DNA of 64,000 nt from the NCBI GenBank assembly GCA_963737265.1, contig CAVTRY010000012.1:96001-160000 (forward strand), read 5' to 3'. The stretch comes from an uncultured delta proteobacterium (lineage in GTDB: Bacteria > Myxococcota_A > Polyangia > Fen-1088). Under the pieces are notes generated by a model, which had not been told where the DNA came from, searched no databases, and saw only the letters and a list, made by a program, of their open reading frames with translations. The position numbers and the translations under genes were made by a program. Within the stretch, counting starts at the first letter, position 1, and the number at the start of each line of letters is the position of its first letter. Shown piece after piece: positions 20,592 to 64,000 of the stretch.

Positions 20592-21746
20592 TCAAAGTGG
20601 AGTGGGCGACTGATACAACTGAAGGATCTCGTCCGCCCCGAGGGCGCGCGTCCAGATTGCGACCTCGTCGATCTCGCCGGCGAACTCCTGGGCGGGTCCG
20701 GCGAGAGGTAGGCAGCCGAGGTAGAGTGGTGACGGGGATAGCGGGACCAATTCGGCGGATTCGCTAAACTCGCCATCCACGGCGCCGTCGACATAAAGGC
20801 GGACGCGCTGGCCCGCTGGCAGCCCGCCATCGAAGACCACCGCAACATGGTACCAACGGTTGGTGGCAAAGGTCCGTTGGCCGTGAAAACGATCCGTGCC
20901 GACATCGGCCCATAAGTAAAAGTCCGCGCCGCCATCGGTCCACAGGAACATGCTGTACGAGCTGTCGACCATGTAGTTGGTTCGCTTGGCGATGATCCCG
21001 TTGGAAGCGGGATCGAGAGCGGTGGGGAAGATCCACGCCGCCAATGTAAGCTGTGTCGTGGGACGCAAGCTGGGATCGTCGGGAATCTGGACACAGCCGT
21101 TTCTGTCGTCGAAGGATCCCGCGCGTCCGAAGTAGCCATGCGCCGTTGTGTTGGGCAAGAGGTCGGACGAATCGGTTCCCTTGACCGCCGTTCCGTTGTT
21201 GTACCCACAGCTGTCGATGACTTCGCCGGAAACGCCACTCCAGGAGGCTTCGTCCATGTGCATAACGAGCCCGCATCCAGAAAGGAGTCGACTCTCGGCC
21301 GCGCCGCCTGTGCCGGCACCGCCCGTCCCGCCCCCGCCCGTCGCCGCAATTCCACCGGTCGCCGCGATATCGTCCGGCGCCGCGATTCCGTCCGGCGCCG
21401 CGATTCCGTCCGGCGCCGCGATTCCACCCATCGCCGCGGTCCCGCCCATCGCCGCGGTTCCGCCTGACGCCGCCGTTCCGCCTGACGCCGCGATATCGTC
21501 CGGCGCCGCGATATCGTCCGGCGCCGCGATATCGTCCGGCGCCGCGATTCCGCCGGTGGCTGAAACGCCTCCGGCGCCCGTGGCGCCGTCGTCCGTCCCA
21601 TCTTCTCCGTCGCTACTGCTGATGGCTCCGCCGTTGGCCGACGCGCCACCCATTGCCACCCCTCGGTTGGTACCCGTGCGGGCATTGCAAGCCAGCCCCG
21701 AGGCCAAGAAAAGGGCGGCTAGCAAGACTGTCGAACGGGCCAACAT
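20592..21746 (-). CDS. LamG/concanavalin-like domain lipoprotein with low-complexity linker
   Basis: Lipobox GLAC; LTLAAWIFP, RWYHVAVVFDG, LYVDG, FAGEIDEVAIW. Confidence 0.85.
   Translation of the reverse strand: MLARSTVLLAALFLASGLACNARTGTNRGVAMGGASANGGAISSSDGEDGTDDGATGAGGVSATGGIAAPDDIAAPDDIAAPDDIAASGGTAASGGTAAMGGTAAMGGIAAPDGIAAPDGIAAPDDIAATGGIAATGGGGTGGAGTGGAAESRLLSGCGLVMHMDEASWSGVSGEVIDSCGYNNGTAVKGTDSSDLLPNTTAHGYFGRAGSFDDRNGCVQIPDDPSLRPTTQLTLAAWIFPTALDPASNGIIAKRTNYMVDSSYSMFLWTDGGADFYLWADVGTDRFHGQRTFATNRWYHVAVVFDGGLPAGQRVRLYVDGAVDGEFSESAELVPLSPSPLYLGCLPLAGPAQEFAGEIDEVAIWTRALGADEILQLYQSPTPL
21340..21552 (-). repeat. In-frame 18-bp tandem repeats (PDDIAA / PDGIAA / xGGTAA)
   Basis: Repeated cgccgcgatatcgtccgg-type units in the LamG gene linker. 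Confidence 0.85.
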
Positions 21747-21808
21747 TTAGACGGGCTCAGTCAGCTGCCCATAAAGATAACATCTATTGCCAGGTGGTGA
21801 GGCGATTT

Positions 21809-22387
21809 GGGTGCCTCCCTGAAACGGGGGCCCCAGCCGGGGGCTCGGTGAGGTAGCAACTTCTGGCGGAGTGCCGCCGAAAACGCAGATATGGAACAGC
21901 GAGGAACGGAGAAACAGAGACAGGATGACTTTACTGGGCAAATTATCGCCGCCTGCATCGAAGTCCACCGTCACCTCGGTCCCGGGCTGCTTGAGTCGGC
22001 CTACGAGCACTGCCTGGCGCGCGAGCTAGGCCTGCGTGGATTTCGCACGCAACGTCAGGTCGCGATTCCTCTGCAGTACAAAGGCATTGACCTCGACTGC
22101 GGCTATCGCCTCGACCTCATGGTGGAAGGCCGTTTGGTCGTCGAAGTCAAGGCGGTAGAGCAGTTGCTTCCTGTCCACTTGGCACAGGTCATTACCTATC
22201 TCAAGCTCCTACGACTGCCGGTGGGCCTGCTCGTCAATTTCCACGTCCCCGTACTTCGCGAGGGTCTCCGCCGCCTCGTCAACCCAACCCGTGATCCCTC
22301 TGGTCCTCCGTTCCTCCCTGTTTTTCCCTCCGATCCCACCTGCGCGGGGCGAGGTGAAGCCCCAGCCCCCATTTCAGGGAAGCACCC
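21809..22387 (+). mobile_element. 579-bp TIR element carrying a GxxExxY gene, copy 1
   Basis: TIR GGGTGC(C/T)TCCCTGAAA(C/T)GGGGGC; direct repeat AGGCGATTT at 21800-21808 and 22388-22396; near-identical copy at 54784. Confidence 0.93.
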
Positions 22388-22403
22388 AGGCGATTTCACG
22401 TAG
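21891..22403 (+). CDS. GxxExxY family protein (PD-(D/E)xK-like nuclease fold)
   Basis: IEVHRHLGPGLLESAY signature; YRLDLMVEGRLVVEVKAV; AQVITYLK...GLLVNF. Confidence 0.92.
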   Translation: MEQRGTEKQRQDDFTGQIIAACIEVHRHLGPGLLESAYEHCLARELGLRGFRTQRQVAIPLQYKGIDLDCGYRLDLMVEGRLVVEVKAVEQLLPVHLAQVITYLKLLRLPVGLLVNFHVPVLREGLRRLVNPTRDPSGPPFLPVFPSDPTCAGRGEAPAPISGKHPGDFT

Positions 22404-54758: not shown

Positions 54759-54783
54759 CCAAGCGCGGCCACCCGATCGAACC

Positions 54784-55362
54784 GGGTGCCTCCCTGAAAC
54801 GGGGGCCCCAGCCGGGGGCTCGGTGAGGTAGCAACTTTCGGCGGAGTGCCGCCGAAAACGCAGATATGGAACAGGGAGGAACGGAGAAACAGAGACAGGA
54901 TGACTTTACTGGGCAAATTATCGCCGCCTGCATCGAAGTCCACCGTCACCTCGGTCCCGGGCTGCTTGAGTCGGCCTACGAGCACTGCCTGGCGCGCGAG
55001 CTAGGCCTGCGTGGATTTCGCACTCAACACCAGGTCGCGATTCCTCTGCAGTACAAAGGACTTGACCTCGACTGCGGCTATCGCCTCGACCTCATGGTGG
55101 AAGGCCGTTTGGTCGTCGAAGTCAAGGCGGTAGAGCAGTTGCTTCCTGTCCACTTGGCACAGGTCATTACCTATCTCAAGCTCCTACGACTGCCGGTGGG
55201 CCTGCTCGTCAATTTCCACGTCCCCGTACTTCGCGAGGGTCTCCGCCGCCTCGTCAACCCAACCCGTGATCCCTCTGGTCCTCCGTTCCTCCCTGTTTTT
55301 CCCTCCGATCCCACCTGCGCGGGGCGAGGTGAAGCCCCAGCCCCCGTTTCAGGGAAGCACCC
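54784..55362 (+). mobile_element. 579-bp TIR element carrying a GxxExxY gene, copy 2
   Basis: 23-bp TIRs with one mismatch; direct repeat GATCGAACC at 54775-54783 and 55363-55371. Confidence 0.93.
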
Positions 55363-55456
55363 GATCGAACCTCTGGGCTTGCGATTTGGGTGCGGATTGT
55401 CCAAGACTGCGCCTGATGTCCCCGCCCAAAACAAGTCGGCTTATGAGTGGCGATGA
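54866..55456 (+). CDS. GxxExxY family protein
   Basis: Near-identical to 21891-22403, different read-through C-terminus. Confidence 0.92.
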   Translation: MEQGGTEKQRQDDFTGQIIAACIEVHRHLGPGLLESAYEHCLARELGLRGFRTQHQVAIPLQYKGLDLDCGYRLDLMVEGRLVVEVKAVEQLLPVHLAQVITYLKLLRLPVGLLVNFHVPVLREGLRRLVNPTRDPSGPPFLPVFPSDPTCAGRGEAPAPVSGKHPIEPLGLRFGCGLSKTAPDVPAQNKSAYEWR

Positions 55457-60319: not shown

Positions 60320-63235
60320 ATGAAATTGCGCCCCCAACTGCACGTCCTCGTCGGCGTTGCCTCTCTTCTTCCCCGTGGTTCCGCCGCGTCCGTGCCGGAA
60401 ATCGCCTTCGAACAGTACCGCCTTCCGAGTGGGCTCGACGTCCTGCTACACGTCGACCACCGCGTTCCCATCGTGCATGTCGAGGTTTGGTACAAGGTCG
60501 GGTCAAAAGACGAGGTCGCCGGAAAAACCGGATTTGCCCACCTGTTCGAGCACATGATGTTCCAGGGGACAAAGCACATCCCCGAGGACGCCTACTTCAA
60601 ATATCTGGCCCAAGCCGGAGCATCGGCCCGCAACGGTTCCACCAGCACGGATAGAACCAACTACTTCGAAACCCTGCCCGCGTCGCAGCTTGAGCTTGGT
60701 CTGTGGTTGGAAAGCTCGCGCATGGGCTTCTTGCTCGATCGAGATGGGAACCCTGAGAGGGTTCCCATACCCTCCCGCGACGCTTCGCTGCCGGCCAGGC
60801 CGGCAGGCTCCGCACGCGATCGCCCATCCTTTCGCGAAACCTTCGCCAACCAGCGCGACGTGGTCAAGAACGAGCGCCGCCAGCGCGTGGAAAACAGTCC
60901 CCTCGGTGGCGTCGCGCGCGTCGAGCTGGAAGCTCTCTTCCCCGTCGGACACCCGTACCGCCACGAAGTCGTCGGCTCGATGGAAGATTTGGATGCGGCG
61001 TCCGAGGCCGATTTGAAGGATTTTTTCAACCGCTACTACGCGCCCGGGAACGCCGTGCTCCTTATCGCGGGCGACATCGATACCGCCTTTACCAAGGGAC
61101 TCGTCGAAAAGTATTTCGGCCCCATCGCCCCCGGACTGCCCATCCAGCGCGTACCGGTGCCGCCCATTCCGCCGCAGAAGGCAGAGCGACGACGGATCGC
61201 CATGGAAGCGAAGATCAATCTGTCGCGCGGGCAAATGGCGTGGAACACGGTGCCTGCCTTCGCCGCGGGCGACGCGGAGCTCGATATGCTCGCCAACATC
61301 TTGGGCGAAGGCCGCAGCTCCCGGCTGTATCAACGCCTCGTCTACGATCTCAAGATTGCCCAGTCCGTATCGGCGAACCACATGAGTCGCGTGTATGGTG
61401 GCACCTTCGAAATCGCCTACACCGTCATGCGCGGCCATTCCCTGGCCGAGGTGGAAAAGGTCATCGATGAAGAGTTGGACAAGCTGTGCACCCAGCCTCC
61501 TGCGCAGGAAGAAGTCGAACGCGCGCGCAACCAAATCAAGACCGACCTGTTCAAGGGCATGGAAACGTTGTCGGGTCTGGCCTCGCATCTCCTCTACTAC
61601 GACGTCTTCGCGGGCGACGCCGGCTACTTGCGCCGCGATCTCGATCGTTACGACGGCGCGACGGCCGAAATTCTGGGAACCTGGGCCCGGAAGATCCTGA
61701 CCAAGAATGGCCGCGTGGTCGTCGATGTCGAGCCCAATCCGAAGGCGCCCATCATGGGCCGGTTGGTGAAGGCTGCCCCAGCGGCTGCTGACAGGCCAAC
61801 TCCTGTCGACGGTGGCCAAGCCATCGTGGCGCAGGCCAAGATCGTTCCACGTGCGACGCCCGATGCCGCTTTCCGCTCCACGCTGCCGCAGCCTGGGGAC
61901 AAACATCCCTTCAAGGTGCCGGCCGTGAAGCGCTTTCGGCTAAAAAATGGACTGTCCGTCATCTTGGCCGAATCGCACAAGCTGCCGCTCGTCAGCCTGG
62001 ACCTGATCGTAAAAACCGGCAGCAGCGCGAACGGGAAGGACAAGGCAGGTCTTGCCAGCCTGGTGGCCAACCTGCTCGACGAAGGGACAAAGAAGCGCAC
62101 CGCCACCCAAATCGCCAACGAGGTGGCACAGCTCGGCGCGAGCTTGAACACCTACGCGACGTGGGATGCGTCGGCGGTCTCGCTCAGCACGCTCAGCGAG
62201 AACCTCGACCGGGGCCTCGACGTGTGGGCCGATGTGCTGCTCAATCCAGCCTTCGCCGAAGATGATCTCGTGCGCGTCGTCGACAATCTGGCTTCATCGC
62301 TGGCCCAGCGCAAAGACTACCCACCCATCGTCGCGGGACAGGTCTTTGCGCGCGCCCTGTGGGGCGATGTGCATCCCTTCGCATGGCCCGACACCGGCAC
62401 CGAAGCATCGTTAAGGGCTCTCGATCGCGCCAGCGTCAGGCGTTTTTACGACACGTTCTACGTCCCGAGCAATGCCGTGCTGGTGGTGACGGGCGACGTG
62501 ACCGAAAAGGACGTGCATGCCAAGATCGAACCCTTGCTTGCCAAGTGGAAAGCCAAGAAGGTTCCATCGGTCAAACTGCCCAAGGTCGAAGCGCCGGAAA
62601 AGCTCCGCATCGTTCTCGTCGACAAGGCCGGCGCGCCGCAGTCGTCGATCCGCATCGGCCTGCCAGGAATCGAACGCAAGAACCCCGACTACTACCGCGC
62701 CCTGGTGACGAACCAGATCCTGGGCGGAGGTTTCAAGCGGTTGGCGCTGAACCTGCGCGAAACCAAGGGCTGGACCTACGGCGTGGGCTCGCAATTCGAC
62801 GCCCGCCGATCCGTCGGCCCGTGGACCATCAGCGGCGAGTTCGTCGCGGCGCACACCGCGGATGCGGTGGCCGAGATTCTCAAGGAAATCGAAAAGCTGC
62901 GTGCCGAGGACGTCACCGACAAAGAGCTGGCCGAAACCAAGGACGAGATCGTCGGCGCCTTCCCGGCGCGCTTCGCCACCGCCAGCCAGCTCGCCTCGCA
63001 GATGACCGCGCTTGCCGTCTACGACCTGCCCCCGACGGAGCTTGATTCGTTCGTCGGCAAGATCGCCGCCGTCGACAAACAGCAGGTACGAGCGATGGCG
63101 CGAAAATACTTCCGGCCGGACAATCTGCTCATCGTCGTGGTCGGGGATCGCGTCGGCAATGAGGCGGCACTGCGCAAAATCGCCGAGGTCGAACGCCGCG
63201 ATCTCGACGGCAACCTAATCGAGCCTGGTCGTTGA
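60320..63235 (+). CDS. M16-family (pitrilysin-like) zinc peptidase, two-domain fusion
   Basis: Signal peptide, GFAHLFEHMMF (HxxEH), NQRDVVKNERRQ, LRETKGWTYG. Confidence 0.92.
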   Translation: MKLRPQLHVLVGVASLLPRGSAASVPEIAFEQYRLPSGLDVLLHVDHRVPIVHVEVWYKVGSKDEVAGKTGFAHLFEHMMFQGTKHIPEDAYFKYLAQAGASARNGSTSTDRTNYFETLPASQLELGLWLESSRMGFLLDRDGNPERVPIPSRDASLPARPAGSARDRPSFRETFANQRDVVKNERRQRVENSPLGGVARVELEALFPVGHPYRHEVVGSMEDLDAASEADLKDFFNRYYAPGNAVLLIAGDIDTAFTKGLVEKYFGPIAPGLPIQRVPVPPIPPQKAERRRIAMEAKINLSRGQMAWNTVPAFAAGDAELDMLANILGEGRSSRLYQRLVYDLKIAQSVSANHMSRVYGGTFEIAYTVMRGHSLAEVEKVIDEELDKLCTQPPAQEEVERARNQIKTDLFKGMETLSGLASHLLYYDVFAGDAGYLRRDLDRYDGATAEILGTWARKILTKNGRVVVDVEPNPKAPIMGRLVKAAPAAADRPTPVDGGQAIVAQAKIVPRATPDAAFRSTLPQPGDKHPFKVPAVKRFRLKNGLSVILAESHKLPLVSLDLIVKTGSSANGKDKAGLASLVANLLDEGTKKRTATQIANEVAQLGASLNTYATWDASAVSLSTLSENLDRGLDVWADVLLNPAFAEDDLVRVVDNLASSLAQRKDYPPIVAGQVFARALWGDVHPFAWPDTGTEASLRALDRASVRRFYDTFYVPSNAVLVVTGDVTEKDVHAKIEPLLAKWKAKKVPSVKLPKVEAPEKLRIVLVDKAGAPQSSIRIGLPGIERKNPDYYRALVTNQILGGGFKRLALNLRETKGWTYGVGSQFDARRSVGPWTISGEFVAAHTADAVAEILKEIEKLRAEDVTDKELAETKDEIVGAFPARFATASQLASQMTALAVYDLPPTELDSFVGKIAAVDKQQVRAMARKYFRPDNLLIVVVGDRVGNEAALRKIAEVERRDLDGNLIEPGR
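60736..60822. mobile_element. 81-bp palindromic in-frame insertion in the M16 peptidase gene
   Basis: Hairpins ATGGGAACCCT-GAG-AGGGTTCCCAT and CTGCCGGCC-A-GGCCGGCAG; CGATCG at 60736-41 and 60817-22. Confidence 0.65.
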
Positions 63236-64000
63236 GCACCTTCCGCGAGCTGCGCGAGCTGCGGCTGGCCGACGAGAAGGGGACGCTCTACTCGCAGGCC
63301 GACATGGCCGTCGCCCTGTGCTACCCGAGCCCCTACCACGTCGGCATGTCGTCGCTCGGATTCCAAACCATCTACCGCGAGCTCAACGCCCTGAACGGCA
63401 TCGCGGCCGAGCGCGCCTTCTTACCCGACGACGTACCGGCCGCGCGCGCGCAGCACGAGGTGCTTTGCACCTACGAATCCAACCGACCCGTCGCTGATTT
63501 TCCCATCGTCGCCTTCTCGCTGGCTTACGAGCTTGAGCTGGCGGGCTTGGTCCATTGCCTGGACCTGGCCGGAATTCCGCCGCTAGCAGCCGATCGCGAT
63601 GCCCAGGATCGGCGCTGGCCACTTATCGTTGTCGGCGGGCCGCTGACCTTTTCTAATCCCGTGCCCGCCGGCCCCATGGCCGACGTCATCGCGATGGGCG
63701 AGGCGGAAGAATTGGTCAGCGCGCTGGTGCGCCACTTTCGCGACAGCAGTGACAAACGCGTCCTGCTGCAGACCCTGGCACGCTTGCCCGGTTTCTTCGT
63801 TCCCTCGATCCACGGCGAGCACCCGCCCGCCGTCGCCGCGGCCGCCAATTCGCGCTTGCCCGCTTTTTCGCAGATCATCACGCCACACACCGAGCTGTCC
63901 GACATGTTCCTCATCGAGGCCGCGCGCGGGTGCAGCCGCACCTGTACCTACTGTGTGATGCGCAGATCGACCAACGGGGGCATGCGCAAGGTCGAGCCCG
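63232..64000 (+). CDS. Radical SAM protein, partial (runs off the window)
   Basis: YPSPYHVGMSSLGFQ, GGP..FSNP, IEAARGCSRTCTYC. Confidence 0.85.
   Translation, partial: MSTFRELRELRLADEKGTLYSQADMAVALCYPSPYHVGMSSLGFQTIYRELNALNGIAAERAFLPDDVPAARAQHEVLCTYESNRPVADFPIVAFSLAYELELAGLVHCLDLAGIPPLAADRDAQDRRWPLIVVGGPLTFSNPVPAGPMADVIAMGEAEELVSALVRHFRDSSDKRVLLQTLARLPGFFVPSIHGEHPPAVAAAANSRLPAFSQIITPHTELSDMFLIEAARGCSRTCTYCVMRRSTNGGMRKVEP

Follow-up and report, generated by a model that had tools for sequence, protein, structure and literature searches.

Among the closest described relatives of the element treated here are the mobile insertion cassettes, a type to which MIC231 of Bacillus cereus presumably belongs. 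In the accounts of the qnrS2 and qnrD cassettes, such units consist of the ends of an insertion sequence (IS) enclosing one passenger gene and no transposase gene, are flanked by duplications of the length typical of the IS family and are assumed to be moved in trans. The element analysed here is a 579-bp unit found twice in a stretch of 64,000 nucleotides (the window; contig C12:96001-160000) from the genome of a soil bacterium, an uncultured delta proteobacterium of the lineage Fen-1088 (G000; assembly of 6.55 Mb in 25 contigs, 99.5% complete by marker genes). It is like these cassettes in all of the features listed, and it very probably represents an ISKra4-group mobile insertion cassette of the non-autonomous kind, in which a captured GxxExxY gene is carried as cargo and moved in trans. 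What distinguishes it from the cassettes of those accounts is the ISKra4 lineage of its ends, its GxxExxY passenger and its occurrence at 39 loci, a copy number of miniature elements and not of a typical cassette.

The group to which the ends belong was treated by Guerillot et al. in 2014 (PMC3942029). Elements of the TnGBS, ISLre2 and ISKra4 types were reported there to have inverted repeats, 18-39 bp long, with a C at the terminus, and direct repeats of 8 or 9 bp, and TnGBS, ISLre2 and a number of ISKra4-group elements to insert at a distance of 15-17 bases upstream of the -35 region of sigma-A promoters. The cassette agrees with this group, as characterized in the main text of that report, by its 23-bp inverted repeat with a terminal C, its 9-bp duplication and its spacing of 16 bp to -35 boxes, and its ends match those of two members at 22 to 23 of 23 positions; it differs from the ISKra4 group by the absence of both the transposase gene and the second open reading frame (ORF2). 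The term MITE (miniature inverted-repeat transposable element) does not appear in the main text of PMC3942029, the lists of elements and passengers being placed in supplementary tables beyond that text. Mention is made in it of the Pack-MULEs, non-autonomous Mutator-like elements of plants with captured host genes. Since the transposase group belongs to the Mutator superfamily, the cassette can be viewed as a bacterial counterpart of Pack-MULEs: both share the superfamily, a captured host gene and insertion near the 5' ends of genes, whereas the cassette is bacterial and carries a whole intact gene instead of fragments. MITEs are likewise similar in their short size, lack of transposase, high copy number, inverted ends with duplication and tendency to outnumber the parent, but the cassette encodes a full protein that was under selection before the copies multiplied.

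Structure of the cassette

The two 579-bp units with 23-bp inverted ends and perfect 9-bp duplications that a sequence-only reading of the window had reported were both found. Copy 1 occupies positions 21809-22387 (+) and is the same as the majority sequence of the 31 full-length copies in the genome. Copy 2, at 54784-55362 (+), is 98.4% identical to it; the alignment of the two is free of gaps, with 9 differences inside the element, and homology ends precisely at the inverted ends. The 9-mer AGGCGATTT was read directly at 21800-21808, left of copy 1, and recurs on its right at 22388-22396, while copy 2 is flanked by GATCGAACC, also read directly, at 54775-54783 and 55363-55371. The inverted repeats of the cassette are 23 bp long with the terminus ..CACCC; in copy 1 the left one (21809-21831, +) is GGGTGCCTCCCTGAAACGGGGGC and the right one (22365-22387) reads GGGTGCTTCCCTGAAATGGGGGC when reverse-complemented. 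The end pattern occurs four times in the window, against 0.01 occurrences expected from shuffles.

Within these ends, a left subterminal stretch with the gene leader (21832-21890, +) contains a small hairpin (GGCGG..CCGCC), and a right end of 48 bp (22340-22387, +), which takes in the right inverted repeat, is derived from an IS, as judged by comparison with the metagenome element L095 described below. GxxExxY is the sole long reading frame of the cassette, and no transposase gene lies within it. In copy 1 this frame (21891-22403, +) encodes 170 aa, of which residues 13-128 form the domain, and in copy 2 (54866-55456) it is intact. There is no stop codon for it in the cassette: the frame runs via the right inverted end into the flank (22275-22403 and 55250-55456 in the window), so that each copy has a different C-terminal tail. 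An inner inverted repeat of 25 nt is also present, its left arm (21895-21919, +) encoding the N-terminal tail and its right arm (22298-22322, +), to which the left arm is 88% complementary, encoding part of the C-terminal tail.

Copy number, target site duplications and empty site

Genome-wide tabulation of copies and duplications by blastn yielded 44 matching pieces at 39 loci, 31 full-length and eight partial, the latter being truncated, internally deleted or interrupted. A perfect 9-bp direct repeat, different at each site, flanks 30 of the 31 full-length copies (two repeats reach 10 bp by chance), and the remaining one is an old copy of 93.6% identity with a decayed repeat in which 7 of 9 bases are kept. 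The view, taken from the sequence alone, of a transposase-less mobile unit with GxxExxY as its only gene and with the fixed 9-bp duplication of DDE-type transposition thus held for the genome at large. Full-length copies with unrelated flanks are spread over 12 contigs, and at least 98.4% identity to copy 1 in 26 of the 31 indicates a recent burst.

The search for empty sites, which had been proposed as a check on mobility, came out in its favour: at locus C22:99530 the flanks are contiguous in all five same-genus genomes examined, with a single equivalent of the 9-mer and without the element. For another copy (L012, C23:453860) this search was uninformative, the right-hand sequence not being conserved in the five relatives, and around window copy 1 conservation in relatives is limited to the gene on the right. 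Public contigs of the four runs X1-X4 break at exactly 21809 and 22387 and then enter the flanks of other copies; none of them contains a joint across an empty site. In run X1, depth was about 60 over the element and about 4 over the flanks. Copy number, duplications, empty site and contig breaks at the element edges together establish the 579-bp unit as a real transposable element.

The genome contains 43 GxxExxY matches. Each of 30 relatives has 0-3 of them, and among 120 other genomes of the phylum the gene was found in 13, with at most 7 matches each. On these counts, the burst of the cassette is lineage-specific.

The distribution of copies over the genome is uneven. Six full copies are clustered in about 105 kb on C22 (38-143 kb) and a stretch of 8 kb on C12 (402-410 kb) contains three loci, while two copies on C14 (364-368 kb) have an identical right flank, which points to local duplication. 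Two further cassettes (L032, C20:14118-16133; L033, C23:162554-164571) are each split by the same IS of about 1.44 kb, at different positions; in either case about 11 bp of the cassette sequence overlap. This IS encodes a 438-aa transposase of the IS4 family, with a score (97.6 bits) under the model cut-off of 115.

Transposase-bearing relatives

When the genome was scanned for the cassette end of 23 bp at a tolerance of 5 mismatches, 76 hits were returned: 73 cassette ends, a singleton with 5 mismatches and the two ends of a 2120-bp element at C20:66979-69098. Each inverted end of this C20 element has 4 mismatches to the cassette end (19/23), and the element is flanked by the 9-bp duplication GGAAAGCGG. 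Its uninterrupted 466-aa protein matches the ISKra4 family transposase model NF033572 (E 3.6e-76, 256.9 bits, cut-off 205). It also encodes a 141-aa ORF2 product, which matched no known family in Pfam, NCBIfam, PADLOC or PHROGs. An ORF2 of 141-142 aa following the transposase is conserved in this ISKra4 lineage (L031:2058-2483; L094:1671-2099; L095 about 1597-2025), and that of the L094/L095 lineage is 71% identical to the C20 ORF2, as compared between two members.

From a metagenome search with the C20 transposase, 80 loci were kept. The end pattern was present at both ends in only two of them, which are also the two closest, L094 (73% identity) and L095 (74%). Both come from soil metagenomes and possess a DDE transposase together with ORF2, and both ends of each read GGGTGCTTCCCTGAAACGGGGGC, matching the left end of the cassette at 22 of 23 positions and the right end of window copy 2 at all 23. 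On the right side the likeness extends further inward: the last 48 bp of L095 differ from cassette positions 22340-22387 by one indel and one substitution, i.e. the adjoining 25 bases are also common to both. The gene motif GPGLLExxYE was found in none of the 80 loci. These end matches, within the genome and in metagenomes, and the right 48 bp of L095 indicate that the cassette ends are those of transposase-bearing ISs of the ISKra4 lineage, with the interior replaced by GxxExxY. It had been anticipated that an IS with the same ends and a DDE transposase would reduce the unit to a carrier of cargo, and such ISs do exist.

Neither the cassette ends nor a close homologue of the C20 transposase were found in the 30 relatives, where the best match to the latter had 30-32% identity. 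In an exact-end scan with one genome per species, the only hit was a single 23-mer in an unrelated genome. It had neither a second end nor any likeness outside the 23 bases, and about 0.3 such hits were estimated to be expected by chance.

A second ISKra4-like family resides in the same genome. It is 1783 bp long with 10 full copies (e.g. C22:80621-82403), has ends GGGTGGGTTGCACGGG.., produces 9-bp duplications, encodes its transposase over two frames and displays a -35-like box at base 17 in several flanks. By hand count, its ends match only about 12 of 23 cassette bases.

Target site preference

Thirty-five distinct flanks were aligned by their distance outward from the element. In 14/35 right flanks, base 17 is the exact start of a match to TTGACA of at least 4/6 (binomial P 2e-13 at a background of 2.8%); every other offset between 1 and 59 has 5 such matches at most. 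A match of at least 5/6 is seen in 6/35 right flanks. On the left, TTG is present at base 17 in 7/35 flanks (P 4e-7), and a weaker A/T-rich signal was noted at bases 40-46 of the flanks. Insertion 16 bp upstream of -35-like boxes is a signal of the population of copies. In the window, a -35-like TTGCGA is located 7 bp past the right duplication of copy 2, 16 bp from the element end. A spacing of this kind belongs to the transposase and would not be anticipated for a small nuclease.

Two different cassette variants form a tandem pair on C17 (62354-62931 and 62941-63520, span 62354-63520), in which the 9-mer GCGCCACGG occurs at three places, with TTGACC 16 bp farther on. It looks like two independent insertions at one promoter-defined site, as repeated targeting of a ruler type would give.

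To the left of copy 1, the neighbouring gene (20592-21746, -) codes for a protein of 384 aa in which short tandem repeats (..GGIAAPDDIAAPDDI.., ..GGTAASGGTAA..) follow one another, and the start codon of this gene lies 63 bp from the left end of the cassette.

Integrity of the gene among copies

The GxxExxY gene is disrupted in 15 of the 31 full-length copies, the domain being intact in the other 16. The latter comprise 13 fully intact frames, one with two compensating frameshifts and two shifted only past the domain; among the former, two lack the start codon or meet a stop at codon 3, and 13 have frameshifts or deletions in the domain. Several lesions recur at different loci with different duplications, namely 383delG (8 copies), 474delG (5), 370insC (3) and the start-codon change 83A>C (3). 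The same lesions at different sites imply that broken copies kept transposing, and a copy accordingly appears to have no need of its own GxxExxY gene for its spread.

The GxxExxY protein

The frame of copy 1 matches PF13366 PDDEXK_3 (E 5e-41, 140.1 bits, cut-off 22) and TIGR04256 GxxExxY (E 1e-41, 141.9 bits, cut-off 35), nearly the whole of both profiles being covered (positions 2-115/116 and 2-116/117). The assignment to the PD-(D/E)xK fold is based on these Pfam and NCBIfam profile matches. Copy 1 contains G32-x-x-E35-x-x-Y38, D75 and E85-V-K87, which we take to be the GxxExxY motif (G32/E35/Y38) and the catalytic-type residues of a D...ExK arrangement (D75...E85-x-K87); the latter are intact, as had been stated from the translation. 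A sequence search of the PDB gave no match at E up to 1, and no family of PADLOC or PHROGs was matched. TnsA of Tn7 and proteins of the YhgA/Rpn type also have the PD-(D/E)xK fold and are connected with transposition or recombination. The likeness of GxxExxY to them is one of fold class, and the GxxExxY frame differs in being dispensable for the spread of copies. In a table of Steczkiewicz et al. (2012), the function of PDDEXK_3/PF13366 is listed as 'Unknown', with multiple transfers.

Comparison of the cargo with its nearest relative, a gene on C17 of the genome G005 (91% nucleotide identity), gave 12 non-synonymous and 15 synonymous changes over codons 14-130, i.e. a dN/dS of roughly 0.26 by hand count on the alignment. 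Over the first 13 codons, 5 non-synonymous and no synonymous changes were counted, also by hand. The G005 gene shares the leader, which is found upstream of it from the equivalent of 21849 onward, and the inner repeat; it has no IS ends.

Inner inverted repeat and gene-less arm pairs

An inverted repeat of 19-39 bp, located in the coding N- and C-terminal tails, brackets all ten GxxExxY genes examined in the genus and neither of the two examined outside the family. The sequences of the arms vary between genes yet stay complementary (loci L082-L089, L093; L092 = C22:198320-198790). One GxxExxY gene lies between a comM-like gene and recA at the same place in six species, with arms that differ and remain complementary; RNAalifold gave it a terminal stem of about 28 pairs, 5 of them changed on both sides, on six related sequences only. 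The solo gene of the genome studied here, separate from the cassettes, is the one fixed at this place. Ten GxxExxY genes in relatives of the genus are without cassette-type ends. The inner repeat was also considered as the mark of an independently mobile cassette, an idea weakened by the orthologous and fixed comM-GxxExxY-recA locus.

Arm pairs were also encountered without the gene. Outside the cassette copies, the arm motif has only 2 hits in the genome. A palindromic unit of about 135 bp at C14:19240-19375 contains the inner-repeat motif without the gene; CAATGCCGTTCG inverted ends and a direct repeat, about 10 bp long, form its borders. In the genomes G003 and G004, repeats of about 310 bp (at least 11 copies, 82-94% alike; e.g. 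L043:1450-1770, L057, L059) hold a gutted GxxExxY gene, the first ~31 codons being fused to the C-terminal tail; their ends, of about 38 bp, have a small hairpin with a variable loop, and no target duplication was seen at them. The distant genome G040 harbors, at 25 or more loci (L192-L207, L174-L179), a 215-bp miniature element that has GGGTGCAG.. (GGGTGC) ends and is flanked by 9-bp duplications; the GxxExxY genes of G040 are located apart from it, in a repeated unit of about 697 bp. No match to the ISKra4-family transposase was obtained in G040. For the frame upstream of the G040 gene, the label 'IS630-like' found no support in Pfam or NCBIfam and was dropped. Gene-less arm pairs may be either deletion products of similar cassettes or traces of a module of gene plus arms that spreads alone.

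Mechanism and alternative explanations

According to the scheme that we favor, about 40 bp on the left and 48 bp on the right of the cassette would derive from an IS of the ISKra4 lineage, i.e. one with a prokaryotic Mutator-type DDE transposase, whose transposase gene and ORF2 would have been replaced by a captured GxxExxY gene of the type found in the genus, inner repeat included. A transposase supplied in trans would bind the 23-bp ends, cut out or copy the unit and insert it by a 9-bp staggered cut, at 16 bp upstream of -35 boxes in sigma-70-type promoters, and in this way the unit could have reached about 39 loci. The helper may be the single resident C20 element, or else a lost or unassembled relative with perfectly matching ends, and the GxxExxY protein would be cargo, unneeded by a copy for its own movement. 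The simplest history would then comprise the arrival of an ISKra4-lineage element by horizontal transfer, the probable exchange of its interior for the GxxExxY gene and the amplification of the short derivative.

Several observations weigh against this scheme. Past the inverted repeat, the cassette and the C20 element are not significantly alike (z 0.4-0.9), and the left end of the cassette resembles ISs only weakly there (z below 1). The sole candidate helper in the assembly is single-copy with 4/23 differences at each end, and perfectly matching relatives were seen only in metagenomes and none in this genome. As to targets, a strict promoter and terminator scan around both window copies found no site, and copy 1 is without a convincing box. 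Since the domain is intact in 16 of 31 copies, such copies could still provide the protein in trans, and shared lesions could pass from copy to copy by gene conversion without transposition. Furthermore, the GxxExxY domain was, by the count of substitutions, under purifying selection prior to the burst. Finally, the centre of the 215-bp element of G040 is the arm pair of that genome's own GxxExxY genes, with an 18-nt loop instead of the gene, and such gene-less arm pairs hint at a non-random link between the gene module and mobile elements of this kind.

The sequence-only reading had left two alternatives, cargo moved in trans or a GxxExxY protein taking part in its own mobility, and of these the former is supported by our data. 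That the nuclease would itself act as transposase, or as an indispensable TnsA-like partner, in a new class of autonomous elements with 23-bp ends is very unlikely, even though it is encoded by the only gene of the unit, with catalytic-type residues intact in the master copy, a fully intact frame in 13/31 copies and a domain under purifying selection before the burst, and even though no perfectly matching IS is present in the assembly. The ends and the right 48 bp belong to autonomous elements of the ISKra4 lineage in which the gene is absent, the choice of targets carries the signature published for transposases of the ISKra4/TnGBS group, frame-destroying lesions are common to copies at different sites, and ten GxxExxY genes in relatives of the genus, including the one closest to the cargo, exist without such ends. 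The solo gene of this genome, for its part, is fixed between comM and recA in six species. A separate question is which DDE transposase acts on the cassette. A helper other than that of C20, either a lost or unassembled IS with perfect ends or the 1783-bp family, is possible, though we hold it to be the less probable choice; this would be a variant of the favored scheme with the same mechanism. Perfectly matching ends do exist in soil metagenomes, the assembly is still in 25 contigs, and the 1783-bp family also makes 9-bp duplications, with -35-like boxes at the same offset in some flanks. Conversely, the low end similarity and split transposase of that family speak against it, and an assembly of such completeness contains no perfect-ended element.

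An explanation of another kind would regard the GxxExxY gene and its co-varying inner repeat as a selfish module, homing-like or REPIN-RAYT-like, which merely sits in an ISKra4-derived miniature element and whose nuclease would act on the hairpin or cruciform of gene-less arm pairs. It would explain why arm pairs, filled or empty, are met in unrelated small mobile elements of distant genomes, and why the cassette, and not the parent IS, attained about 39 copies. It draws on the bracketing of 10/10 genus genes by arms that vary yet stay complementary, on the gene-less arm pairs of this genome and of G040, and on the repeated internally deleted derivatives of G003 and G004. Nevertheless we consider it improbable: in six species the comM-GxxExxY-recA gene is an orthologue at a fixed place, so that the bracket is native to a stable gene, the arm motif outside cassettes is found only twice in the genome, no pair of filled and empty states was found at one locus, and a gene-less hairpin can equally be a deletion product. 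As for segmental duplication or an assembly artefact in place of transposition, the identical right flanks of the two C14 copies do reveal a local duplication, but as a general explanation it is scarcely credible in view of 30 different perfect duplications among 31 copies, unrelated flanks on 12 contigs, a site empty in five relatives and contigs of independent runs that break at the very borders of the element.

Implications

The cassette is most likely an unusually prolific case of a known type of hitch-hiking element and not a new kind of transposon. In this instance a tempting false lead is settled, the small PD-(D/E)xK protein being cargo and not a new transposase. Text searches of the literature, in which part of the records were judged by their titles, did not retrieve a description of a gene-carrying non-autonomous derivative of the ISKra4 lineage, and the cassette adds a clear case of such a derivative for this lineage of bacterial Mutator-type elements. 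Its 35 distinct sites offer an unusually clean view, within one genome, of promoter-ruler targeting at 16 bp from the -35 box. The conserved inverted-repeat bracket around GxxExxY genes deserves a study of its own. For the GxxExxY family, riding on the ends of an IS represents one concrete route by which these genes may become large paralogous families.

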